Shown in pieces: positions 40,735 through 64,000 of a DNA stretch of 64,000 bases. The notes under the pieces were generated by a model. The model did no database searches and had not been told where the DNA came from. It saw nothing but the letters and a program-made list of their open reading frames with translations. The first letter of the stretch is position 1. The number at the start of each line of letters is the position of its first letter. The position numbers were made by a program, and so were the translations under genes. This stretch comes from Folioceros fuciformis (taxonomy: Eukaryota). The stretch lies in assembly GCA_049999805.1 (NCBI GenBank), contig JBNGIO010005679.1:1-64000 (forward strand). The letters run 5' to 3'.

Positions 40735-42962
40735 ATGAGTATGCCTGGGTCTCCTGTCTCATCGTCGTCGGGGGACGACTTCGCGGCTTTGGTGGAAAGG
40801 GAGTTGCAACTGATGGACAACGAGCAGGAAGAGGCAGAGACTACAGAGGGGGCAGGGGAAGGGGAGTACGACGAGGCAGACGAGGCGGATGAGGCGGGGA
40901 ACGCAGTGAAGCCTGAAGTCGATATGGATAATGAATCAGAGCAGGGTCCTGATCAGGGGAGGAAATTAGGGCTGGAACGGCAAAGTACCAGTTGTCCTCC
41001 TCACCCCGGCTTTATGTGGGATGTTTGCATTCGATGTGGCAAAGAAAAGCCCTACTCGTCAGGGTCAAGTGTCTCCCTTCGCTACATGCACGAGGTCAGT
41101 TGGTTTTCTCGGGCGCTAATGGGTGCACCAAATGTTGTCATCGCTATGAGTTGTGACCATGCCGAATTTCAGGGGTTGGAACTGACCTCATCAGGAGCTG
41201 AACGAATGCGTTTTGATGAGCTGGCGAGGTTGAAGGCAAGCAAAAAGTTGTACCTGGTACTGGATTTAGATCACACACTCCTCAATTCTGCGAGGTTTGT
41301 GGAGGTGACCCCGGAGGAAGAAGCATACCTAGCGACAGCGTATGCCCAGGATATGTCAGTGGTTACCCAGCCTCAAGGTACGCTTTTGGTGAATTAGGTT
41401 GAGCCTATTGTGAAGTGCAGAGTTGGGGCTTCGATTTATCTGTGATTGTCCTCCTCCTGACTGGACGGACGGCCAAATTCTGCCCTCGTTCCTTACTGTG
41501 TGCAGCGTTGGGAAAATCAGGGGAAAGGCAATCTGCGCTTAATAACAAAGCCAGTTTGCATAGGCTGGAGCATTTCCAGATGTGGACAAAAATTCGCCCG
41601 TTTGTACATAAATTTCTGGAAGAGGCGAGTAAGCTGTTCGAGATGTACGTTTATACCATGGGCGAGCGGATATATGCACTGGCCATGGCTCGAATACTGG
41701 ATCCGACTGGACGGTTGTTTGGGGACCGCGTGATTTCTCAACGGGACAGCACCAAGCGGCATACCAAGGATCTGGACATTGTCTTGGGGGCAGAGTCAGC
41801 CGTAGTCATACTGGATGACACAGAAAGGGTATGTTAAGGTGGCCTTTGTTTTCGTTCATTTTCTCTGCAGGGTATATGAGGTTGCCTCATGTCGTGGAAA
41901 CTTGGAAGAGTGGTTAATCAGCAGGCTTTTGCTTGACTTGTTTCGTAGGTTTGGCCAAAGCACAGAGCAAATCTGGTTTTGATAGAAAGGTATCACTTTT
42001 TCAGCGCCAGCTGCCGGCAGTATGGTGTTCATTGTGAATCTCTGTCTCAAAGCCAAAGGGATGAGAGGGAGTTCCAAGGCACTTTGCAGACTGTCCTTGA
42101 CATCCTTCGGAGTGTCCATGCCGAGTTTTTCAACCCCAGGAGTCAGCAGGTCGTTAGGGAGAGAATGTGTTATATGTCGTCGTATGCTGTTATTAGTTCT
42201 GGAGTAGGGTCGGTGAACCTTTAAGTGACGTAGTGACGAATCCCAGTCTCTTTGTCGTGTGCTGCAGGGTGCGAACGGAAGACATGTGGACGGATTCGCG
42301 TCAAGGGACGTGAGACAGGTAGCTGTTATTTGAGTTCAAAGCTAATTAAAAAGGCCCATTACTTTGTTCTTAGTCCGCTGCGGAGTAGCTGCATGCCATA
42401 GTCGATCCACTTATGTACAGCCACTTGTGTGCAGATCCTGGAAGACGCTCGTAGTAGAATTCTAAAAGGATGTGGCATAGTTTTTAGCCGCATTATCCCA
42501 ACAGAATATCCAGAGCCTGAAAAGCACCCGTTCTGGCGGTTAACAGAGGAGTTGGGTGCACAGTGCTTTGTCACGGTGAACGAGCGGACCACCCATGTTG
42601 TAGCGTTAGACCGCACAACGGACAAGTCTCGATGGGCCAGGAGCCGAGGAGTGCACCTTGTCCATCCCAGCTGGGTGGAGGCCGCTCAGTATCTGTGGCG
42701 GAAGCCGGCAGAGGAAGATTTCCCAGTCGGACCTTTCGAGCCGGGCGACAAGATTCTATCGTCAAGCTTCGTGAAGACGGTGGAGGTGGTAGGAGCACCA
42801 CGAACAGCGTGTGTGGACTCTGTGGAGGGTGCGTCCCTGAACCACAGTGCTTCTGATGAAGCTAGGAAACGGGCTTTGGAGTCGGAGTCGGAGCCTGCGT
42901 CGGGCATCAGACCCCAGACAGAGCAGTCCGAGTCCGTTGGGAAGAAGCAGAAACTTAAATAG
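40735..42962 (+). CDS. CPL4: RNA polymerase II CTD phosphatase-like (CPL4/FCP1-type: FCPH + BRCT), multi-exon
   Basis: SSSSGDDFAALVEREL, CPPHPGF..CIRCG, KLYLVLDLDHTLLNS (DxDxT), WTKIRPFVHKFLEEASKLFEMYVYTMG, VVILDDT, IERYHFF; BRCT LKGCGIVFS...THVVA...LVHPSWVEAA.YLWRK. Confidence 0.92.
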
Positions 42963-48727: not shown

Positions 48728-49115
48728 GCAATCAGCTATTGCTTTATCCTCAACCGAAGCAGAATATGTATCACTTACAGACTTTGCTAAGGAGGCTGAA
48801 TGGGCAACATCATACCTCAAGGATCTTCATCATGAGCAAGCCAGTCCTACTACTGTGTATTGTGATAACAACTCTGCGATTGCCCTTGTTGCCAACCTGC
48901 GTTTTCATGCTCGTACAAAACACATCGAGATCAAACATCATTATGTTAGAGATGCAGTGGCACGAGGAGTCATACAAGTAAAATATATACCAACAGCGGA
49001 GAATACTGCAGATATCATGACAAAGTCACTACCCAAGCTCAAGCATTCGCATCACATGGAATCCCTTGGTATACGAGACTTCAGCTATTTGTTACCAAGA
49101 ACAGGAGTAAGGTAA
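48728..49115 (+). mobile_element. Ty1/copia RNase H domain, N-terminally truncated
   Basis: QSAIALSSTEAEYVSL...VYCDNNSAIALVANLRFHARTKHIEIKHHYVRD...ENTADIMTKSLP. Confidence 0.92.
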
Positions 49116-49991
49116 ACAGTGGTGACAATCTGACCTGTTTGGAATTGGGGGGATGGGGACCTCAGTCCCCTGGTTTTATAGTTTATCATAATTTTAGCTG
49201 TGAGACCCAGCTCTAAAGCTGTCCTCTCATCAGTCCTGCCATGTGTTCTGCAGCACATACATACAGATTAGTTGGTCAGACTTGCTTTTGTCTATCACCA
49301 TCACAGCCATGGATGAATCATCACAGTGTTTACCTAATCATGGCACTTTAGGGGTTTGTTGTCTTCTGTGGGAGCTGTCTCCCGTCTGCTGCATCAATCC
49401 TTTCTACTTCTGTTTCTTCCTTCACGTTTTCATCAGCAGGCAGTGGGGCAGATTGCCTCGCGCCATCTAACCTTCATCCCTCCGAGGGGGTCTGGGTTAG
49501 GCGGGTCCAGGAGTTCAGCCACTATCTCTTTTTTCCTTCACAGCTGAATTTGCCCTGCCTGTTTCCTGCACCTTGCGCACAGTCACGCTGGCTGCCACCT
49601 CCACTTCCTAGCCGCAGCTACTGATGTAGTGCTGTAGATTGAAAGGTCTCCACTGCAAAGCCCTTGTGTTTCTAGCACCAGCTGCAACCTCTTCCTGTTT
49701 CTTCACCGCACGTTTCTTCCTTGGGACAGCACCCTCTCCATACCTTTCAGGCCTGTAGCGCGCACCGCTTCTTGTAGTCATTTTCTGCTGCTGCCACAGT
49801 ATGAGCAAACAGAAGGAGGCGAGGATGGTGGCCACAATCGCAAGTAGCTGCGACATGGAGTCACAGTCGTCGCTTCAGCTCCCAGCGCGTAACAGTGCGA
49901 GCTCTGGCTAACGAGCGTGTGCGATAACGGGAGAGGGCGGCGCTCGACTCTCATCTAAAGGAAGATGCACACTGCCTAGGTTATGTGGGAG

Positions 49992-50708
49992 TGTTGAAAA
50001 TAACCCGTTGTTATGGGTAACCTAGGAGTATGCATGAATAGATGACCTAATTAGTTTAGGGCTTGGCTATAAATACCTTTACCTTTTCATTATTAATTAT
50101 TCTCTCATTAATTATCATGCTGGATTCTTTTGATATCTATCTCTCACTACACGCACAAGATGTCAAGCTGTCTTGACTGCTATTCAGCATCTTATATTCC
50201 TGTTACAACACCATCCTGTGATCCTGCTTCCGCTGGCAGGGAGCGAGGAGACACGAAGCGCCACTGTCCAGACAGCTGCGACTTTTCATTCAGATTCGAA
50301 GGGGCACAATTCCATATTTTGTTGAGTTATCGAGCTCTATATGAGCTAAACTCATGTGGTGTTAGTTATCCCAGTTGGGTTCATACTAGACTAGTTCTAG
50401 TTATTAGTGAACTTAGGATAGTGTCGATTATCCCATATTGAACCTGGAAGTTGTGTAGCCCTAAATGTACTACTTAAATGGAGACCTCGGACCTCCATAG
50501 TAAGACAGTGGTGATGTGTATTGTTTTCATGGTTGTGATCACCAATACCACCCTCTCTTCTCTCCTCTCCTACACTTGCACGTAGACTGGAGTCGATCCT
50601 ATTGACATATTTGTCCCTTGCATCTTTAGTGTCTTCTGTTGTTTGATAGGCCAACTAACCTGTCATATTCAAGCGACATGACGGTTAGAAACCCTAAAGA
50701 ACTCAACA
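49992..50708 (+). mobile_element. Ty1/copia LTR (717 bp), single copy in the window
   Basis: TGTTGA...TCAACA terminal inverted repeat; preceded by PPT-like tatgtgggag; ctataaata TATA at ~50067. Confidence 0.75.
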
Positions 50709-50969
50709 GTAACGTTTCATGTTTGAAAGTGCACTAAGTTTCTTTTGCAGGACATATACGTTTCATGGAAGGTAGATGAAGGAAGAAGCATGCTGTTGAC
50801 CAGATAGGTGCTCACCTGCCCCTCTCATGCCTCCTCCTTCGTCTAGCCTCCTGTCACGCATTGTTAGCATTAGCTGCATTTAAGATAACACACATGTTTT
50901 AAGCACGAAAATGCATCATTTTTGTCTTCCCAAAACCATAGTTTAAAGGTGGAGACTTAGCTGGCTTGC

Positions 50970-53900
50970 ATGTCCAGATTCGATTACGATGATAGTGACG
51001 ATAGTGACATCAATCGCCACTCCTCTTCCAGTTCAGAAGAAGGTGAAGTCGACCAAGCTGCATATTTTGCATCCTTCTTTTGGTCGAACCCTCCAGTAGT
51101 TCCCATCATCCTTGCTGCACAGTCACACACAAACATGTCAAACCCGTCATTTACATCAGACTTGAAAGAGAAAGATCGGTTTAACGGTAGTAAGTACCCT
51201 GTGTGGAGAGTGCGTATCAAGGCCATCCTTATAGCACGAGGTGTCTGGAATGTGGTCAGCAGTTCATTTGTAGAACCTGACTCAGCCACAGGCACTCAAG
51301 CTGATAAGGATAGGTGGGAAGCACATAACCAAGTTGTTGTAGCAGTCTTGGTCAATGGATTGGACTCCATACTTGTCCCTAACATAGAGTATCTCACAAA
51401 GGGCATAGAGATATGGAACCAGTTAGAAAAGACCTATCAGGTCACGAATATAATGCAACAATGCGCTGTTAGGCAAGAGTATCATACGTTAAGAATGAAA
51501 GAGGGAGAGAAAGTGGGTCCTTACTGTACTAAGTTCCACCACTTATGTGCTCAGCTCGCTTCATTGAAGTACAAGATTGCTGAGGAACATGCTGTTGTGC
51601 AGCTGCTGAGCAGCCTGCCTGCATCCCTTCAGCAATTTGTCAGCTCGTATAATGGGCCTTTGTGTACAGCACAGGCTGCTGTAGCCGCCGAGAACGCAAG
51701 CACCCTCACAGTTGAAGATGTGGTGGCTGCCTTGCATCAGGAGGAGCACAGTCGCCTGTTTTCTACCGGTAGCTCTAAGCCAAAGGCAGATAAAGTGTTG
51801 ATGGCCAGGTTTAAACCTAACGGGCAGAAGGGTAAGCCTAACCAGGCGAACAAACGTGATTCCGGATCATCCAGCTCAACTCCTAAGAAGACAGGCAACA
51901 GGAACTGGTGTGGTATACCCGGCCACCACGGCCAGAGACTGCCGTAAAAAGAAGGCGGGGGAACCCCAGAAGAAGGCATCCACCAGTGTTGCTGTTAAGG
52001 ACAAGAGCTCAAACGACTCTTCCTCATCTGCAGAGAACGTCAAAGGAACAGTCAGAATCTACACAATATGTCTCTCAAACTCCTTCCATGATAAGGACAA
52101 TTGGTACTTGGATTCAGGTGCAACTGCCCACATATGCAAGGACAAGGACTTGTTCTCGTACCTGGACAAGACAAGACAAGACAAGACTGACCTGATACTG
52201 GAAGATGTTTTGTATGTCCCACGAATGGCGAAGAACCTCATGTCCTTGAGCAGGCTAATGAGTCTAAAACTGTACAGCATGTTAGCAGACAGAACTTCCT
52301 GTTCGTTCCACACTATCTCTGTCCCGCACAAGCTAGTGTTCAAAGGCCTTCCTGACTGTGATCTGTACCGTTTGGACATTCACTGTAGGTCTCAACCTGC
52401 AGGTCTGTCAACAGGCACAGGTTAGCTAGATTCACAAGTGTTAGCTTCTCTTTGGCATGCCAGGCTTGGTCATGCCAAAAGGGCAAAGCTCATTGACATG
52501 GCTGGAAAGGACTGTTATCGAGAACCCTTCCCTAGATGCTTCAAGGACCTTCCGATTTGTGAAGCCTGTATACTTGCTAAGCAGAAGGAACAGCCATTCT
52601 CAAGCACACTTGCACATAGGGCCAGTCATGTGTTAGAACTCATACATGCTGACATATCTGGGAAAATTCACGAGCCATCACTTGGAGGTTCTCGGTATTA
52701 CCTTGCCCTTACTGACGATTATAGTCGATACTCGTGGACCTTCCCCATGCAGCTAAAAAGTGATACTTTCCAGCTGTTCAGAGACTGGCTTCCTGTGGTG
52801 CAGCGACACACTGGACAGGTTGTTAAATGGCTTCGAACTGACAATGGCACTGAATTCATCAATGCACAGTTTGATGCCTTTCTGCAGGAGTATGGGATTC
52901 AGCGTCAGCTGACAATTCCCTACACACCACAACATAATGGAGTTGCCGAATGTAAAAATCAAACCTTACTCGGCATGACTCGCAGCATGTTACTTTGGGC
53001 AGGACTCCCACAAGGATACTGGGCAGAGGCAGTGGTGGCTGCCACCTATATACTGAACAGGATGTTTACAAGTTTTGTCAAAGGGCAGACCCCCTATGAG
53101 GTACTCTGGAAATGTAAGCCCAACATTCTTCATCTCCGAGTCTTCGGCTCTCGGGCTTTCGCCTATATCCCTGCCAAAAAGAGGAGGAAGTTAGACAATC
53201 GGGCACAAGGTCTTATTTTCGTAGGATACAGCGAGAATGTCAAAGCTTACAAACTTTATGACAAGCATAGACATACCATTGTTCTGGCAAGGAGTGTCAC
53301 CTTCTTGGAACCACATGCACCTATGGGTGAGCCACTACCTTCAGAGGGAGTAACTCCAGCTCCAGATGGAGTGACTGTAGCTTCAGAGGAGGTAGAAGAC
53401 TCAGCAGATCTGGATGAGTCAGATCCAGCACTTGACCCTCCTGTGGACTATCCCCAAGATGACGCTGGCCCTGTTGATGATGCTCTACCAGCACCTGACC
53501 ATGTTCTACCTGTACCAGAACGACCTGATGTGTTAGTACAGGATTCTGTGGAGCAGGATGTTTTTTCAGAACATGAACAATTCGGTTTTGATCACGTTGA
53601 TTACCAGCATGAAGATCTGTTTGATGAAAATGCCTCCTAGGATCCTCCTACACATGAGGAGCACGTTCCAGATGTTGATGAGCTGCCTGTACAGGAGCCT
53701 CGACGCTCCACACGAATGAAACCAGCCAGGTCAAAGTGGATAGAACCACCATATCAATCCATCGATTTCAGGCACTCCACTTCAACAGCAACAGTCCTTT
53801 TACCAGATGAGCCCAAGACCTTATCACAGGCGTTCAATGGTCCAGAAGCTGCACAATGGCGTGTGGCAATTGAAGACGAATATCAGTCGTTGATCAAAAA

Positions 53901-54897
53901 CAAAACCTGGACTCTAGTTGACTTGCCACATGGTAGGAAGCCCATCTCAAGTAAGTGGGTATTTAAATTAAAGCTGAATGCCAAGGGTGAGGTTGCCGGA
54001 TTCAAAGCCAGACTTGTGGCGAGAGGTTTCACACAAGTCGAGGGACTCGACTATCAGGAAACTTTCTCACCTGTTGTGAGGGCTCAGTCCATCCGGATGA
54101 TCCTTGCACTTGCCACAGAGTACCACTTAGACCTCCAGCAGATGGACGTGTGCACGGCCTTCTTGTATGGAGACTTGGACGAGGATCTGTATATGCAGCA
54201 ACCTGAGGCATACGTGGATCAGAAGCACCCACACAAGGTGTTAAAACTCATGAAATGTATATATGGTTTAAAACAGTCTGGTAGGGTGTGGTACATTACG
54301 ATTCACATCTACCTTCTTAGCATCAACTTTGTGCAGAGCACGGCTGACACAAACGTGTATCGGCTTACCAAAGGGGCAGAGTACGTGGTCCTGGCACTAT
54401 ATGTAGACGACGTGATTCTAGCCACCAACAGCCAGCCATTGTTGTTAGAAGTGAAAGGCTTGCTAAGCAAAAAGTTTGAAATGAAGGACATAGAAGCCCT
54501 CAGATTTTGCTTAGGGATCCAGATCATTCGTAATAGACCTGAGAAGCTTATGGTCATACACCAGCTCAAATACATTAACGAGATACTGCAAAGGTTCAAG
54601 TTAGAGGAATGCCGACCTGCTACAACACCAGCAGCAGTAGGAGTCAAGCTCACAACCCTGATGTGCCCTCAGACTGCCCAGGAGAAACAAGATATGGTAG
54701 GAGTTCCTTATAGGCACACTGTGGGAAGCCTTATCTTTGTGGCAAATTGGACGAGACCTGATGTACAATACGCTGTAAGCAGAGTCTCCCAATTCCTGGA
54801 AAATCCAGGGAAGGCACACTGGATTGCAGTAAAACGGATATTTAGATACCTCAAGGGCACCATGTATCATGGGCTGGTATACAAAAGCAGCAGGTAG
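50970..54897 (+). mobile_element. Ty1/copia gag-protease-integrase-RT, degenerate (frameshift in zinc knuckle, in-frame TAG stops, truncated before RNase H)
   Basis: Gag FNGSKYPVWRVRIKAIL...LLSSLPAS; broken knuckle NWCGIPGH/TARDC; protease WYLDSGATAH; integrase LWHARLGH..C..C, IHADI, LRTDNGTEF, PQHNGVAE; RT FKARLVARGFTQ, QMDVCTAFL, IYGLKQS, LYVDD, KRIFRYLKGT. Confidence 0.96.
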
Positions 54898-56206
54898 GAT
54901 AGACTTATCAAAACAAAAAATCACTCCAACACACACCTTAGCAGGGAGTTCCTAGTCATCCTATTTGGATAGTAAGGGGGATAAATATATGGCTTTCTCG
55001 CCTATGAGAGTATTTGTTGACCTTACTTATTTTGCATATACGATTAAGACCCCAGCCATATAAGATTAAGAATAATGTGTTCACACATGGTATCTCACCC
55101 ACCATATAGGATTAAGAATAACATGTTAGCAAATAGTGTCTCATGTTGGATCAGTAGCAACCATATAGGCAAGACTTGATCTTCTTGCTACTCGATTTGG
55201 TTACATAATGTATTATTCAGTTAATATTGGTTGTCTTAATTTTGGGTTTGAAACACATGTTTAAGACTATCTAGATGAATTAGATATTTATTAATAAATA
55301 ATTATATTACATATATCAAGAAAGAGTTAGAATTAATTAAATGCAATTGAATTACAGTAAGTGAATTGGAAGAATGCTGGTTAGTGTGGGACATTGATGT
55401 AGCTATACAGTGGCACTTGCTCCATAGACATGATGGAGTCGGTTTCAAACTCTACATAGGAGACGTGTCTTGAACCAAGCAATTGGGGTGCAACGTGTGA
55501 CTTGGGCATAAATGGGCTTGGGTGATAAATAGGATGCCAGTTCGAAGTGAGGTTGTGGTTGTTCACTCCTTGATGTGTGGTGTGCTATGGCAGAGAGGTA
55601 GATGCGTAGTTGGATTGAGCGTAGAAGGCAGCTGCTAGTGCTTTTTATTTTCACCGCACTTGAGAGAATATGAAGTTTTTAGACATTATGGGTGTTATCA
55701 CTTTGCAAACGGAACTACAAGAGTAGAGGTGGCATGGTCTGGATGTTGAAGACCAATCGTGTAGAGTAGTTGATGCAGAAGGATAATGCATGACAACAAT
55801 ATAAAGAGGAAATATCGCTAAGTGGCTACTTTGCCTTTATATATTTCAATGGACAGGTTAATTATTAAGACTTAATAAAATTTTGCACCTAGGTTTGTAA
55901 GGTGCAACTGGAATGGATTTATGGAAGGCATTGGTTTTATATATATCTTGGATTAATTAGGGAGTGTTATGACAACTTGTTGCGCACTAAAGAGGAATTC
56001 GCTCGTGCTTCACTAGTCTTCTCAAATAAAGTGCGAGGATGGACCCTCGCTGATGGATTGTCCGCAATATTTGGTAGGAATATAGAAAGTCGAACGAAGA
56101 GAGCAATAACATCAACATTATGGACAAGACAAGGCATTGAAGAAGAGCTTCGACTCACCACCTTGCTGAAGGGGTAGAAGGACCGCTTGAAGCGAGAATA
56201 CAAAGC

Positions 56207-56333
56207 AAAACTAAGAATGGGTGGTGAACTCATCACATCAAAGAGCCCAAAACTAAGAATAGGTGGTGATCCCATCGCATCAAAGAGCCCAAATCTAAGA
56301 ATGGGTGGTGAACCCATCACATCAAAGAGCCCA
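56207..56333. repeat. 42-bp tandem repeat, 3 copies
   Basis: aaaactaagaatgggtggtgaacccatcacatcaaagagccc unit. Confidence 0.9.
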
Positions 56334-56403
56334 AGCATTTAGAGGATCTCTCTCTTGTATAGTTACTGACTTTAGGCAGATATATCTATCCATCTATAGA
56401 AGG

Positions 56404-56658
56404 TGTTGGCTAATGAAGAATACATGACATCAATTAATGAAGGGCAAGTAGCTTCTTTGACTTCATGGTGGGTAGGCCCTTTCATATTCGTAACCATGAA
56501 GTTCTTGGAACCATGGTTAATGTCAATGATATGTTGGCTAATGAAGAATACATGACATCAATTAATGAAGGGCAAGTAGCTTTTTTGACTTCATGGTGGG
56601 TAGGCCCTTTCATATTCTTAACCATGAAGTTCTTGGAACCATGGTTAATGTCAATGAT
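56404..56658. repeat. ~128-bp near-perfect tandem duplication
   Basis: tgttggctaatgaagaatacatgacatc...catggttaatgtcaatgat occurs twice with a few substitutions. Confidence 0.92.
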
Positions 56659-57419
56659 GGTAATCATAGGCTAGCCTCCTCGATGAAGTGCCCTTCATTG
56701 AGTTGTCCCGTTTTCTTTTAAGGATAGATGAGTTTCATCTCTCCTTTTGTAAGAAAGTCTCCAGATTTTTTTTTTCCCCAAACAAGACTTAGCATGCATG
56801 ATTTTTGGCAATTGCATGTTTAAATCCTCATTCCTATATTATGGAGTGCCCCATTTGGATGTTAGGTCTGCTTGAGATCACTGATAAAATCTTGATAATT
56901 ATAATAAGTGAAAATAATAATCTCATTCATAATTAAAGATACTAATAATAATAATATATTTACCCTAACGATATAGGTAGACCGAGTCCTATATGTACTG
57001 CACAGTTGTTTTGGCCCATCATGACGGACAGCGGGTGAGGACTGCGCCTTCCCTTTCGGAATGTGTTGTAGGTGGTACCGAGACCACTGTCATTTCTGAT
57101 GGAATACATTCCGTACATTGATAAAGAGGGTGAAATCGGGTTCCGGAAGTCTTTGTCGTTTACTTTGTGAACGGCCCCTGCCAACGCTGTCTTTTTGTGT
57201 CTGCACTGTTCCACCGCAACCACTAGACTAGGCGCTTTCTACCCACCAGGGATGTCGGCCAGTTTCGCGACAGAAGTGCCATCTGTTCTTTTCCCCAATC
57301 CTCTGGGTCACGGGTGTGTTTCTGGCACAGAGGTGCCATCTCACGCTCGACAGAGATGTCGGTGGACAGCCTCGAACCAGTCCTTGAGTTCAAAAATCCC
57401 GTCTCCTCCTTCATCCGGG

Positions 57420-58030
57420 TGTGCACGATGCGGAGCCATTGCACCCTAATGGCTTAAATAACGTCACTGGTGGGCACCTTGTTGGTGAACATGTACGCGA
57501 GATGTGGTGAGCTTGAAGATGCCCAGGTCCGCCAGGGTTTGGACAGCTTGGCCACAGAATGTTGTGCACGACATGGAATGTTCTCACGGCTGGTCATGTT
57601 GGGTTTGCCTAGCATAAGGGGGGCAAGGTATGACATGAAACGAGTTCGATTCTACATGCATCTGCAGGGGCAATGGGCTGGCTAAGTTTGTGTGCAAAGC
57701 TTGCGTGCGCGGTGGACGGGAAGCCTGGTTCTTCAAAGCTGGCACATGCTGCTGCTGTGTTGCTTGTCTTGACGGTGAGAGTCATGTCAGCTCATGGTTA
57801 GGCAACGCTGATGCTGAGAAGAGGGGAGGTCCTTGTCAATCAGTTTGGTGGTGAGGCATCATCTGTCTCACTAGTTTTTGCGGGACCGGGCCTGATTGTG
57901 TAGAGCTGGCGCATGCTGCTACTGTGTTCCTTGTCCCGAAAGTGAGAAACACCTATCAGCTCGTGGTCACGCCGATGTCGAGCTGCGTTGATGCTGACAG
58001 AAGCGATACCCTTTTCAACCAGTTTACTGG
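57420..58030 (+). pseudogene. Degraded PLS-class PPR gene remnant
   Basis: VGTLLVNMYARCGELEDAQ at ~57470; VCKAC and KLAHA fragments; diverged internal duplication agctggc(a/g)catgctgct(g/a)ctgtgtt at ~57737 and ~57904; frames broken. Confidence 0.55.
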
Positions 58031-60505
58031 CTCTTCACAGCAGAGGAGGGACAATCGGCAGATTTCAGTCAGTCCAGAAGCAGCACGACTCAGACCGGTA
58101 GCTGACATAAATGTGTGTACGTTTGAAGTCAGCACCGTGATCGGCCAAGCTCTGGTTTTCCTGAAAATGAAATACAACCCAGATGATGTCCAAGTCGTTC
58201 AGGTCGAATTGATTTGGGCTGGTGGACTCCTCCAAGGGGTTGGTTAGTTACTGACAACATTTCTCAGTAGTGCAGGAATGATTTTCCTCCAGTGGTGAGT
58301 ACGATATTGCCCAAAGATTGGCGGGATGGAAAAGATGAAGCGAGGTGATGTCACTTATTTGAGCACCCAATGCTTTTCCCTATGGTCATTGTATGTACAG
58401 AGTTGGGATTTTAGCATATAGACCACGATGGTTGTGGGGCTTTGGAGCCGGGCTTTTGCCAATGTTTGCTCACCACGAAATACCGTGCAGAAAATTTGGG
58501 TACTGTTGGTGGTGCTTGCCGTGGATGTTTGGCTGTAGTTAGTAGCACTCGTGTTTTGAGTAGCTGCGAATATGGTCGTCTTGCTTCACCAGAATGCAGG
58601 GTTGGGTAAAGGAGAGGGAAGGTCTAGCAAGCCGCCAATTTGGCTTGATCGGCAGCGATGACATGAAGATATTATGCTGTTGTGCGTGCATCTTCTTTCC
58701 GATTCCAGTACTGTGCCAGGACGTGGGGGGCATGCGGACCAGCATGTCCATGCCATCCGCATCGGAAGGTGAGACGGCAGTTTTGAGTCGGTCCCAATTG
58801 CAAGAGTTCACGAGCCGAGCGACTTTCAAGAAACGGTCCAGTCCAATCCGGAGCCGTTACCATGGTTACGTGTCCTGAGGCGCAGAAAGTTCGCTGTTCG
58901 GGAATCCCGAAGTGATTGAGGGAAGGTCACGAGACGGAGTCCAGGTTCTTGCACCGTCCCGAACCCTGAGCCGAATATGCAGTGGCAGCGTCCCGCGCAG
59001 AAGTAGGTGTTAGGAACCCGAAACTAAGATGTCCATGATTCCAGCTTGCTCGATTGACATCAAGAGGCATGAATGAAGCCGTGAATCCCTCTGGACCTGC
59101 AGGAAAAGCCTTCCCGTGCCGGGCCGGATCGGTTGCATGACTGTCAGTCAATCAGGTGAAGGTGATGAAGCGGGCAACACGAAACGCCTGGCAATGCGTG
59201 CCAACTCGTAGCGAACTTGTTTCGAAATTTGTGACTGTCCCATGCACGCAGAGCCGTATGTGCCAAGTGGCGATTCCCCGAGTCCCAGGCTGCAAATGCA
59301 GCGAAGAGCCGAGCGCGCAGTCCCCATGTGCAGCGTTACGGAACTATCACTTTCCTTCAAGCCTGTTGCAACATAACACATGCACGTATGTACATTGCAG
59401 GCAAGGAAGGGACGCATTCGGGTGGGTGGCCGGGTGTTATCAGCGGTCCTATACTGCGCTTGCATCTGCTGTGCGTGAAAGAGATGCTCTGGGACTGTAC
59501 TCCTTCGCAACCTGGCCGGCTATGGCCTTGGGTTTGCAATGCGCCGAGCTCACAACTGGCAACAACAAGAAGACGAAGAAAACACTACTGTTCAGCTGTG
59601 CTAAAGCCTAAAGGACACAATCAATCAGGCTCTGTCACGCAGTTGCAACCTTGGAGAGGAGCAGATCGGAGGACGACAGTGCCACCCGTTCCCGCCTCTG
59701 CGATCGCTGTGAGTCTGCGACAGATGCAAAAGGAGAAGAAGCGTGGCTTGTTCCCGCCCGGCATTGCGCTTAGGTTGCAGTGCAAGGTTCCCGCGGATAG
59801 TTGGAGGAGGTGTTACCCGGCCCCGGCGGCGGACAGGACAACGCATGAGTTGGGCCCGCGCAGATTAGTAGCTCATTTATTAAAGCATTAAATGGTGGGG
59901 GTGGCAGGCCTTCCCCGGGCGACCCCGCCTGGTAGGTAAACCAAGCGGTTTCCGCCATCCCCGTGGAGAGATGCGAGGAAGCGTCCAGCCCGTGGGCATC
60001 GGCGTTGGCGGAGGCCACCGCAAGACGCCACGACAGGGCAGAGAGCAGGGAGCAGGGGCAGAGGCAGGGAGCAGGGCAGGGCAGGGCAGGGCATGGCATC
60101 CCGTACCGGCGCGGGTACTTCCGCGTACGGCCCCTAATTCCGCACCACCGACGTCAGTCGCGGGCATGGAAGGTGCCCCAGGTGCCATGTGCATCTCGTC
60201 CGGGCGGCACTCGGGGCTGGGAGTCATCAGGGACGGCACGGGAAGGCAAGAACAACCACAGGCCTCCTCCGGATACCACCGGGGGCTATGGCACTGCTTC
60301 CCTGCTGAGTCGCTGGCAAAGCACGCCGCTCGCCCTTGGCTCGCAATGGAGCTGGGGCAGGCACCATCGCTTTCATCGCTCCCTTTAAGGCGACCGCGGC
60401 CCAGCCAGGCTACGCTGTGTTCATGTTCGTCTCAGAGTCTCGGCCTTCCTTCAGCTCCTCGCCGGCCCCTGCTCTCTCTCTTTGTACGTGCTTCCTGTTG
60501 TAGCC

Positions 60506-62251
60506 ATGGCTGCCCAGCAGCAGCAGCTGCAGGAGCAGGAGCAGGCGCATTCCGTTTGTGTGCCTGCGGGGTCGCTGGAGACGACGACGCCGCACACCGT
60601 CGTGGGCGATGGATCCGTAGTTGACGGCAAGAGCGATTGCAAGGCCCCGGAGCCCAGCCACGGGAGGCTGCTTCCTTTGGGGAAGTTCCTCATCGTGTAC
60701 GGCTGCATGTCTACCGGGACGCTGCTGGGCGCGCTGGATCAGACGGTGGTGGCGACCATCCTGCCCCAAATCTCCACTGACTTCGGTGCGGCGCGGGACA
60801 TTTCCTGGGTGGGCACGGCCTTTCTCCTCACCTCCACCTCCTTCCAGCCCATCTTCGGATCCCTCTGCGACGTCCTTGGCCGGAAGCCCGCCTTCCTGCT
60901 CTCCATGCTGCTCTTCGCGGTGGGCACGCTGGCGTGCGGGGTGGCGCCCGGCATCATCGCCCTGGTGCTGGCGCGGGCGGTGGCGGGACTCGGCGCGGGC
61001 GGCCTCATGACCACCGTGTTTTTTTTCATCTCGGACGTGGTGGTACTACGGCACCGGGGGAAGTACCAGGGCATCCTTCAGGCTGTGAACGGTTTCGGAA
61101 GCTTGCTCGGCCCGCTCGCCGGGGGGATCTTCGTCAAGACCCTCAGCTGGAGATGGGCCTTCTACTTCCAGGTGCCCATCGCCGGGGTTGCCTTCGTCGC
61201 CTCCCTCTTCTTCCTGCCCAACACCGGCAAGCCCACGGGGTCCCTGCGCGAGCGATTCAGGACGCTGGACTACACCGGGATGCTGCTCCTGGTATCCGGC
61301 ACCTGCGTCTTCATGACGGGCATCACGTACGGCGGATCGACCTACCCCTGGCATCACCCCATCATCATCTCCCTGCTGGTGGCCGGCCCCCTGATCATCC
61401 TCGTCTTCGTGTACAACGAGTCCCGTGCCACCGTGCCCATCATCCCCGGCAGCATCTTCAGCATCGCCGCCGTCGACCTCATCTTCTGCGCCAACTTCCT
61501 CTTCGGCCTCGTCTTCTTCTGCTCGCTCTACTACCTCCCGCTCTACTTCCAGGTGGTGTTCCGTCAGGACGCTCTGCAGTCCGGCATCTCGCTCGTCCCG
61601 CTCACCGTCACCTGCATCTTCTTCTCCTGGTGCAGCGGCCTCATGACCTCCCTCACGGGGAACTACAAGGTGTCGCTCGTCGTGGGCTACACGCTCATGC
61701 TGGTGGCATCCGGGCTCATCTTCACGCTCGACAAGCACACGTCCTACAGGCTCGTCATAGTCTACATGTTCATCATGGGGTGCGGGATGGGCTGCCAGCT
61801 GCAGAACTCCCTGGTGGCTGCCCAGTCTGCCGTGCGGAAGAAGGACGTGGCTCGCACCACCGCCGTGCGCAATTTCTTCAGGAACTTCGGGGGCGTGTTC
61901 GGGCTGGGGATCTCGTCCGCCATCCTCAACACCACTCTCAAAGGCGGCATCAACGGCATTCTGGGCCCCATCCTACCCGATGTCACCACGGATCAGATTA
62001 TCGTCTCGCCCCTCGACCTGTGCCTTTTGGGCTTGATCGACGAGCACGAAGACATCGCCGTCGACGTCTACGTCAAGGCCCTCAGGCTCGTCTTCCTGGT
62101 GTGGATCCCGGCTTCCGCGGTCTGCTTCGTCTGCGGCTGCGTCGTCCCGTCCTACGATCTGGACCGCGCCGACGACGGCGAGCCCCGACGAAAACCGTAC
62201 CTCTGCTCGCCGCCCAGGCATCCGGCCGTCGCGGCAGAACCCAAGCTTTAG
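60506..62251 (+). CDS. MFS drug:H+ antiporter-2 (DHA2, 14-TMS) family transporter, intronless CDS
   Basis: LGALDQTVVATILPQISTDF, SWVGTAFLLTST, motif A-like GSLCDVLGRK, ARAVAGLGAGG, RGKYQG, motif C GSLLGPLAGG, WRWAFY, YYLPLYFQVV, FFRNFGG; many hydrophobic segments; codons end overwhelmingly in C/G. Confidence 0.92.
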   Translation: MAAQQQQLQEQEQAHSVCVPAGSLETTTPHTVVGDGSVVDGKSDCKAPEPSHGRLLPLGKFLIVYGCMSTGTLLGALDQTVVATILPQISTDFGAARDISWVGTAFLLTSTSFQPIFGSLCDVLGRKPAFLLSMLLFAVGTLACGVAPGIIALVLARAVAGLGAGGLMTTVFFFISDVVVLRHRGKYQGILQAVNGFGSLLGPLAGGIFVKTLSWRWAFYFQVPIAGVAFVASLFFLPNTGKPTGSLRERFRTLDYTGMLLLVSGTCVFMTGITYGGSTYPWHHPIIISLLVAGPLIILVFVYNESRATVPIIPGSIFSIAAVDLIFCANFLFGLVFFCSLYYLPLYFQVVFRQDALQSGISLVPLTVTCIFFSWCSGLMTSLTGNYKVSLVVGYTLMLVASGLIFTLDKHTSYRLVIVYMFIMGCGMGCQLQNSLVAAQSAVRKKDVARTTAVRNFFRNFGGVFGLGISSAILNTTLKGGINGILGPILPDVTTDQIIVSPLDLCLLGLIDEHEDIAVDVYVKALRLVFLVWIPASAVCFVCGCVVPSYDLDRADDGEPRRKPYLCSPPRHPAVAAEPKL

Positions 62252-63275
62252 TTTCGTTACTTAGCCTAGCCCATTTTTTTTGGCTGCTCTGTTACGCCGG
62301 CCTGGCTTCATTTCCGTTTGAGACATACCCGGCTTTTCATTCAGAGCTCGGAGTCCTCTACTCCACACTTCCAGGCGCAGTCTAGCTCCTCTGCTCTTCA
62401 GACCTTCTTGTGAATTACTCTTCTCTATCAAGGTATGAGGCTTGCCTAGGCAGCAGTGCTCTTATACATTTTGCCACTTGCACATGGCATGAGCTCTGTA
62501 ACGGAATACATGCTACCAGGGTCTCTCTCTCGCTGTAGTTCAACTGCATTTTCACAGTGGGAGTCCAGGGCTATGATGCTTGCCAGACCAGCAATCAACA
62601 CACCCACGCATGCAAGGCCCACCTGGTACACGAAATTACAAGCTCCGCACTGAGCAAAGAGGCACATAGTCGTTCGTTGCTGAATGCGTTAGTACAGGAC
62701 AACATAGCCCACCATCTACAAACATGAAGCGGAGCCATGCTATTAAAATTGGCATCGCTATTACAGAAGCAAAGCCTCTATAACAGGCTGTCCAAGACCA
62801 GTTCCTGCTAAGGACACCTGCTCTTCACATACATAGTCTACAACACTTCAATCTCACCACACAAATTCCATCTTCAGACCGTCTCGCGATTGTTTGATGA
62901 TACTCCGCCGCACGGACCCCAGTGTCTTATTGCTTTGTATCAGACACACATGTGTGCATCGACTTCCTGTTGTAGTGATGTATAGGGAGAGGGCTAGCTG
63001 TTGCACGGAGCCATGGCTCTCTGGATCACGTACCAACTGACTCTCACGAAAGGCAGGGCAGAACCCAGTTGGTGGGTGCAACATACTGTACATACATCTG
63101 CAAGGAATGGCGGCCTCTGCACGACGATGTCCTTCTGGGGACAGAGGTGCGGGGGTGGCCGGAAACATCAATGTCAGGACATGTGTCAGTTGGCGTGAAT
63201 TTTTAAGCACAGACCGCATCAGGAGGATTTGTGCCTGACCAGTCGTCTTTGCGAAGAAATTAGCGGCCTTCGTGG

Positions 63276-64000
63276 ATGGCGGACCTGGCTGGGTGTGGCC
63301 CACCAGGGAAATGGAGCTCGCTGGCCGCTGGCCCCTCTTGGGGGTCTGTAGGATCGCAAATGGAGGTGTCGTCGGAAACCGTGCGCAAGCTATGCCGGCA
63401 GGGGCGGCTCGACAAGACCGTTGAGGCTTTGGGAATTATGGTGCATTCCGATTGTCACGTCTCCAAATCCCTCTTTCATACGGTCCTCAGAGAATGTGTG
63501 GTCAAGAGGGATCTGGCTCTGGGTCGCCTAGTGCATGCTCTGTCTGTGAAGGTGGGATACGAGTCGGACACGGTCTTATGCAACCACATCCTGAGAATGT
63601 ATGGTTCTCAAGCCAGGTTGGGGGAAGCGATGGATGTGTTCACCATGGTTGCCAAACCGGATGCCTTCACGTGGTCTGCCCTGATATCTGCGCATGTGAA
63701 ACACGGGGAAGATAAGCAGGCCATAGAGCTGTATCGTCGGATGCGCGGGTCCAATGTGATGCCAGATGGCCATGTCTTTGTAGCAGCACTTCAGGCTTGT
63801 GCACGAGGGGCAGACTTGGAATCTGGGCAGCTGGTGCATGCTGATGTGGTGGCCACTGGCGTTGAGCCTGACTTGTTCGTCTGCAGTGGCTTGGTGGACA
63901 TGTACTCGAAGTGTGGCAACTTGGATGGCGCTCAGAGAGTGTTTGACGGGGTGCCTTTCAAAGATGTGGTGATGTGGAATACCATGATAGCAGGATATTC
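63276..64000 (+). CDS. PLS-class pentatricopeptide repeat protein (probable organellar RNA-editing factor), 3' incomplete
   Basis: Open frame from ATG 63276 (alternative 63360) to the window end: LCRQGRL, VLRECVVKRDLALGRLVHA, NHILRMYG, DAFTWSALISAH, FVAALQACA, GLVDMYSKCGNLDGAQRVFD, DVVMWNTMIAGY. Absent from the ORF track, presumably because it has no stop in the window. Confidence 0.93.
   Translation, partial: MADLAGCGPPGKWSSLAAGPSWGSVGSQMEVSSETVRKLCRQGRLDKTVEALGIMVHSDCHVSKSLFHTVLRECVVKRDLALGRLVHALSVKVGYESDTVLCNHILRMYGSQARLGEAMDVFTMVAKPDAFTWSALISAHVKHGEDKQAIELYRRMRGSNVMPDGHVFVAALQACARGADLESGQLVHADVVATGVEPDLFVCSGLVDMYSKCGNLDGAQRVFDGVPFKDVVMWNTMIAGY

Follow-up and report, generated by a model that had tools for sequence, protein, structure and literature searches.

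The question raised by this locus is whether a transporter gene of fungal appearance, lying among plant genes of the hornwort Folioceros fuciformis, is a genuine plant gene of fungal origin, and from which fungi it came. The window, i.e., the whole stretch of DNA analyzed (64,000 nucleotides), corresponds to bases 1-64000 of an 89,457-base contig in a draft assembly of 7240 contigs. The MFS coding sequence (CDS) at 60506-62251 (+) is 1746 bp long, intronless, and without internal stops, and all four signature motifs listed in a preliminary description were found in its 581-aa translation. Pfam assigned this protein to MFS_1 (PF07690; 182.6 bits against a gathering cut-off of 33.4), with additional matches to TRI12 and Sugar_tr. 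The EmrB/QacA model TIGR00711 scored best of 62 NCBIfam families, at 206.7 bits and below its curated cut-off of 230.2; the model was made for prokaryote annotation, and we therefore term the hornwort protein DHA2-type. The 87-Mb assembly contains one copy of the gene: a single match reached 664 bits, and the four remaining ones stayed at or below 27 bits. A Tilletia protein used as query against the same assembly returned the same locus. GC3 of the CDS is 0.89, above the 0.41-0.79 of the 13 other ORF segments measured within the window, in agreement with the C/G-ending codons described earlier. GC3 was nonetheless rejected as proof of foreign origin because a nearby plant gene is also high (0.79 in the first ABCG exon in the window). 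The alleged dissimilarity to neighboring multi-intron genes held only in part, since the PPR genes alongside likewise consist of one long ORF each (932 and 1263 aa). The short N-terminal polyQ tract was dismissed as a notable feature: it amounts to an ordinary run of four Q codons, and the + strand of the window has 5 runs of at least 4 CAR triplets.

An AlphaFold2 model built from a 149-sequence alignment had a pLDDT of 89.2. Its helices were grouped into 14 long segments, each with a 19-residue hydropathy of at least 1.1, which is the helix number of DHA2 transporters, and Foldseek ranks 1 to 10 were all occupied by 14-helix-type pumps (EfpA, MHAS2168, EmrB, QacA, and NorC). The proposed identity as a DHA2 pump was thus borne out at the level of a DHA2-type protein, with 14 helices, DHA2 folds as the closest structures, intact motifs, and a score short of the TIGR00711 cut-off. 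As to the likeness to Azr1, Sge1, and aflT drawn in the preliminary description, none of the searches gave a sequence bearing one of these names. The predicted structure indicated no substrate. Asp78 in TM1 (60737..60739, +), the likely proton/substrate site, is D in 139 of the 149 aligned proteins. The alignment also located G118-x-x-x-D122-x-x-G125-R126-K127 (60857..60886, +), Arg157 in TM4 (60974..60976, +), which is the motif B arginine and R in 149/149 proteins, and a glycine-rich segment in TM5 (residues 196-207; 61091..61126, +) with G202, P203, G206, and G207 each in at least 90% of the 149. We take the first of these stretches to be MFS motif A and the last to be motif C, the antiporter motif. 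By register, D78, F106, and R157 correspond to QacA D34, Y63, and R114, the register being inferred from the match start, at which query residue 73 aligns to QacA 29. In TM13, the sole acidic residue is D447, where the helix begins.

The best 120 of 1187 matches (E<=1e-20) comprised 103 named proteins, 103/103 of them fungal, 11 unnamed ones, and 6 with a JGI label only. The top six of the listed matches were from Tilletia and Testicularia (41-45% identity, 398-489 bits; next match, 387 bits), and a HMMER scan of 1.84 billion representatives also ranked a Tilletia protein first (489 bits; next, 352). There was no plant among the 103 named best matches from a database without the hornwort protein itself, and one clade member was labelled Adiantum. 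In the word-based searches, which scored 8000 candidates, two known clade members were absent among the matches listed, so more may be missing and absence weighs little. The search of shorter proteins recovered no close fragment (best, 221 bits and 36%). In a pattern-limited scan of GTDB, the 53 prokaryote loci matched had identities of 34% or less. The metagenome pattern scan (80 loci) gave at most 38% identity over the best segment, with 35% for the top-ranked locus, and none of these loci was a member of the hornwort-plus-smut clade described below. A named amoebozoan appeared in none of the match lists, and the ten unnamed clade neighbors looked up were all fungal clusters by name (10/10). 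Two short signatures link the hornwort protein to smut fungi. Residues 49-62, preceding TM1 (60650..60691, +), are identical at 14/14 positions to the Tilletia walkeri protein, and this pattern matched 10/272 proteins collected, solely the query and proteins of Tilletia or Testicularia; the C-terminal DGEP signature (62174..62185, +) is common to the smut clade.

Trees were computed with FastTree (269 proteins) and with IQ-TREE LG+C20 (55 rows x 526 columns, chosen from those 269 and further search matches), and the two topologies agreed on the hornwort placement. In the IQ-TREE LG+C20 tree, the hornwort protein was sister (100/100, stem 0.76) to a smut clade, itself supported at 100/100 and consisting of Tilletia, Testicularia, two unnamed Logan proteins, and one protein labelled Adiantum nelumboides. 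The joint group was sister to a Dikarya-plus-chytrid clade, with enclosing fungal nodes at 99/93, 96/95, 97/87, and 100/100. AU tests, whose constraints were chosen after a tree had been seen, rejected the query outside fungi (p-AU 5.4e-5), together with the two closest Glomeromycotina matches, Ambispora and Geosiphon (p-AU 2.5e-12), or as sister to Tilletia alone (p-AU 5.5e-4). The first test discards a bacterial donor, and the second discards a Glomeromycotina donor as far as these two matches are concerned. Nesting in fungi upholds the fungus-to-plant transfer of a DHA2-type pump proposed in the preliminary description; the Mucoromycota source hinted at there was not supported, smut fungi being nearest. 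A Ustilago maydis cluster protein fell in the ordinary Dikarya/chytrid clade of a 34-row tree; joining it to the hornwort-plus-smut group was not rejected (p-AU 0.076), and this group may therefore have originated as a fast duplicate on the smut stem. The smut-type clade is patchy, with Tilletia, Testicularia, and three rows of uncertain origin. The protein labelled Adiantum nelumboides (MCO5588232.1), which nests in this clade, shares 99.7% identity with a JGI metagenome fragment and 94% with a Logan protein; given the former match, it is probably a fungal contaminant of the Adiantum assembly, or else it would be a second plant acquisition. Judged by titles, no paper on contamination of that assembly was found.

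The locus was said to be contiguous, without gaps, with plant sequence. The window holds five N runs, none of which lies between 32912 and 64000. Four of the 10 recorded sequencing runs were compared over 56500-64000, the stretch having no RNA run on record. Run X1 is DNA by guess, and X3 and X5 are RNA by guess; X3 bears the same organism label as the window and derives from a different sample and study, and X4 and X5 come from another organism. Contigs of X1 cover 56629-60900, 61026-62208, and 62262-63651 with 0 differences to the window, and both holes between them are bridged by an RNA-like X3 contig. Because the assembly may have been built from X1, this run does not count as independent support. 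The contiguity claim stands on the PPR side, where there is no N and X1 makes the join; toward the other side, the runs were compared from 56500, and the copia remnant ends at 54897. X4 and X5 contain a diverged copy of the MFS gene; the X4 sequence differs from the window at 39 letters, with 6 gaps, over 60548-61092, and at 74 letters, with 20 gaps, over 61123-62277. One-base deletions in the X4 DNA contig at 60679 and 60795 are absent from the RNA-like X5 contig and could reflect misalignment, a paralogue, or a broken copy.

Gene order on the contig is ABI5-like bZIP, ULK4/RUK-type kinase, ABC transporter, ARID, Pumilio (NABP), CPL4-like, copia remnants, MFS, three PPR-E, GH9, and HD-Zip. 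The nearest conserved upstream plant gene encodes a CPL4-like CTD phosphatase (40735..42962, +) with NIF and PTCB-BRCT domains, which matches AANG011312 of Anthoceros angustus. Downstream, the first of three tandem plant PPR-E genes (63276..64000, +, running beyond the window) is joined to the MFS 3' flank by the X1 contig 62262-63651. The comparison with A. angustus was based on rows of Supplementary Tables 24, 29, 31, and 32 of PMC7027989, and genes were placed by their numbers, an ordering consistent with the coordinates available for eight scaffold60 genes. In these rows, AANG011307-011319 read ABF bZIP, kinase, ABCG11, ARID, PUM2, CPL4, unannotated, MFS_1, PPR-E, PPR-E, GH9, GH9, and HD-Zip (PMC7027989). 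Thus, 11 of the 12 flanking models on scaffold60 have a same-domain counterpart in the same order, AANG011313 being the one without annotation. This conserved order marks the host as an Anthoceros-like hornwort and makes the Folioceros MFS gene the positional orthologue of AANG011314, an assignment by position and domain labels rather than by sequence. Both are MFS_1 genes with a probable Basidiomycota donor, on the + strand and between CPL4 and PPR-E/GH9/HD-Zip; the Folioceros locus has copia remnants upstream and three PPR-E genes downstream, whereas two PPR-E genes are annotated in A. angustus. The table rows give AANG011314 a length of 1680 bp, a span of 1687 bp, and the entry 'intron YES', in contrast to the intronless 1746 bp of the Folioceros copy. 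A spliceosomal intron cannot be as short as 7 bp, so the A. angustus intron is probably a gene-model artefact.

The transfer at this locus is already known through AANG011314, which Supplementary Table 31 of Zhang et al. 2020 gives as a Basidiomycota-derived MFS transfer and which has transcript support in the A. angustus tables (PMC7027989). Table S4 of a 2025 reanalysis enters it twice, from Ma 2022 (PMID 35235827) and Wu 2024 (PMID 39166427), with the verdict 'HGT' for the Ma 2022 row and 'NoHGT' for the Wu 2024 row, the latter because an amoebozoan sequence grouped with the query (PMC12711439). No mention of AANG011314 was found in the main texts of the literature searched, and the text of PMC8075897 contains none of the terms 'HGT', 'horizontal', or 'MFS'. 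About 33 kb downstream of AANG011314 on scaffold60 lies AANG011324, a published HGT gene for an Actinobacteria-derived membrane protein (PMC7027989, Table 31).

Several other features of the neighborhood were recorded. Broken copia remnants occupy 48729-54897 between CPL4 and the MFS gene, with gag, integrase, and RT frames at 50970-54897, where the remnants end, and a separate short pol-tail-like frame at 48729-49115 that has no Pfam match. Short tandem repeats lie upstream of the MFS gene at 56206-56658 (three 42-nt-spaced copies and a 127-nt duplication). A degenerate PPR-like remnant at 57322-58079, with a short frame at 57458-57685 by translation and low-depth X3 cover, may be the counterpart of the unannotated, transcribed AANG011313. 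The three PPR-E genes in tandem are long and intronless (L006:265-10000 and L007:1-1615).

A single X3 contig of 2168 nt spans 60297-62464 with 0 gaps and 6 differences. Several intergenic bins have no X3 cover where X1 continues, the pattern expected of a transcript, and the MFS gene is likely transcribed as an unspliced mRNA. This contig, RNA by guess, delimits a probable unspliced 5' UTR (60297..60505, +) and a probable 3' UTR (62252..62464, +), as it stops at 62464 while the DNA run X1 goes on. The acceptor-like TTGTAG reported earlier is indeed present at 60498-60503, 2 nt before the ATG, but the X3 contig crosses it without a gap, so it is not used as an acceptor there. Pentamers of the type TG[CT]AG are frequent (356 in the window, both strands). 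The read-through and this frequency leave a 5'-UTR intron unsupported, and with it the suggested domestication by such an intron: the check for spliced 5'-UTR reads gave an unspliced RNA-like contig. The intron was rejected for this single contig among the joints listed, contigs being prone to drop rare variants. All 6 X3 differences fall in 61019-61025; five of them recur in X4, and the segment lies outside the X1 contigs. They coincide with a T-run at 61019..61026 (+; codons 172-174, FFF), which X3 and X4 contradict by reading His-Val-Val, with the His at codon 172 as in Testicularia. This is the sole T-run of at least 6 in the CDS and contains 2 of its 3 TTT codons, and FFF at 172-174 occurs in 1 of the 149 aligned proteins, namely, the query itself. 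The run is probably an assembly or gap-fill error that alters three codons and leaves the frame intact. All analyses used the window sequence unchanged, T-run included.

Taken together, the MFS gene is very probably a real fungal-derived plant gene, and a smut-lineage donor (Ustilaginomycotina) is fairly probable. Overall, we read the locus with good confidence as a functional nuclear gene, present once in the hornwort genome, that was obtained in the distant past from a fungus within or adjacent to the smut lineage. The donor would have stood in or beside Ustilaginomycotina, and the transfer would predate the divergence of the Tilletia and Testicularia copies sampled; because the hornwort protein branches beside the smut clade and not within it, the tree singles out no living lineage as donor. 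That the gene belongs to an epiphytic or endophytic fungus, through contamination or a chimeric join, could be suspected from the fragmentation of the draft (7240 contigs), a GC3 unlike that of the neighbors, the local assembly error within the gene, and the two short holes in X1 cover. However, X1 contigs matching the window with 0 differences connect the gene to plant sequence on either side, the gene recurs in X3 (another sample and study) and in X4/X5 (another organism), and the same gene order surrounds it in the independent A. angustus assembly. This synteny excludes contamination for practical purposes, and we consider it extremely improbable. An old eukaryotic lineage, or a transfer from an unsampled third party (a protist or an early fungus), with survival restricted to hornworts and a few smuts, would fit the sister position of the hornwort protein, the separate Dikarya/chytrid placement of the U. 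maydis homologue, and the 'NoHGT' row invoking an amoebozoan sequence (PMC12711439). Yet vertical descent requires loss in all other plants and algae, none of which occurs among the 103 named best matches; the clade lies several supported nodes deep inside fungi, a fast duplicate of an ordinary smut gene was not rejected, and the other reanalysis row scores AANG011314 as 'HGT' (PMC12711439), which makes this origin unlikely. Still more doubtful is a route from a fungus to a hornwort and on to smuts, by which the smut-only clade would descend from a plant copy taken up by an early plant-parasitic smut ancestor. It would account for the hornwort protein branching next to the smut copies as a whole and for the absence of the clade from other sampled fungi, at the cost of two transfers where the fast smut duplicate was not rejected. 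If true, hornworts and smuts would have been associated before Tilletia and Testicularia diverged; living smuts mostly parasitize angiosperms, as stated in part of PMC6303338.

With acquisition from a fungus of or beside the smut lineage as the preferred reading, the function of the pump is less firmly indicated. In QacA, D34, Y63, and R114 interact, and the Y63F variant retains function (PMC10425836, in part). By analogy, the hornwort protein may operate as a QacA/EfpA-like drug:H+ antiporter by alternating access, with D78, paired with R157, as its one main carboxylate. D78 in TM1 would exchange a proton for a small molecule, either a monovalent cation or a neutral hydrophobic compound, and the pump would export a toxic or specialised metabolite or sequester it in the vacuole. 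We lean slightly toward such a putative efflux or detoxification role. The main functional rival keeps the same origin and assigns another job, that of an H+-coupled transporter in the tonoplast or plasma membrane that carries basic amino acids, amines, or boron, similar to yeast Vba or Atr1; it follows from the fact that few yeast DHA2 proteins are broadly chemoprotective. As described in parts of PMC3890622 and PMC4021133, only three confer broad chemoprotection and most have no shown resistance role, while Vba1-3 move basic amino acids into the vacuole and Atr1 is a boron exporter. The lack of TM13 acidic residues beyond D447, unlike QacA, points the same way, as does a member of the sister fungal clade automatically labelled 'vacuolar basic amino acid transporter 1'. 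Against this, the same clade has the efflux pump dotC, FUS6, and a 'glioxin efflux transporter' (also automatic labels), and the sole protein named Vba5 reaches 28% identity. We consider this rival rather unlikely.

These results add support for the 'HGT' verdict on AANG011314, on which the 2025 reanalysis was split, and narrow the donor to the smut lineage as opposed to the Mucoromycota symbionts of hornworts, although Supplementary Figure 82 of Zhang et al. may already show as much. Further information on the donor and on the distribution of the gene may be present in that figure, in Note 7 (PMC7027989), and in the PMC12513842 data supplements. The intronless structure matters because the gene has been tabulated as intron-bearing, and a probable three-codon error is flagged in the Folioceros assembly. 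As a single-copy gene, it provides a clean target for studies of the role of a fungal pump in a hornwort, and it hints at old contact between hornworts and smut-like fungi.

Among known systems, a fungus-derived MFS transporter was reportedly found in Selaginella by Richards et al. 2009, which is likewise a fungal MFS gene in a seed-free plant. No Selaginella protein occurs among the 103 named best matches of the hornwort protein, so the two cases are probably separate events. The bacterial pumps QacA, EfpA, and EmrB share with it the 14-helix fold (Foldseek TM-score 0.69-0.73, query length), the TM1 aspartate, and motifs A, B, and C; they differ in an identity of 18-24%, the hornwort protein lacks the extra TM13 acidic residues of QacA, and it branches apart from prokaryote-type rows. 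The yeast DHA2/DAG proteins (Atr1, Azr1, Sge1, and Vba1-5), likened here by description, have the same fungal 14-spanner MFS architecture, and their substrates include drugs, amino acids, and boron according to parts of PMC3890622 and PMC4021133. The smut MFS clade (Tilletia walkeri, T. indica, T. caries, T. horrida, and T. maclaganii and Testicularia cyperi PWZ01212.1) differs in its longer proteins (649-725 aa, with long N- and C-tails, against 581 aa) and in a His within the general fungal RGKYQG, which the hornwort protein retains, and resembles the latter in 41-45% identity and in the pre-TM1 and C-terminal signatures.
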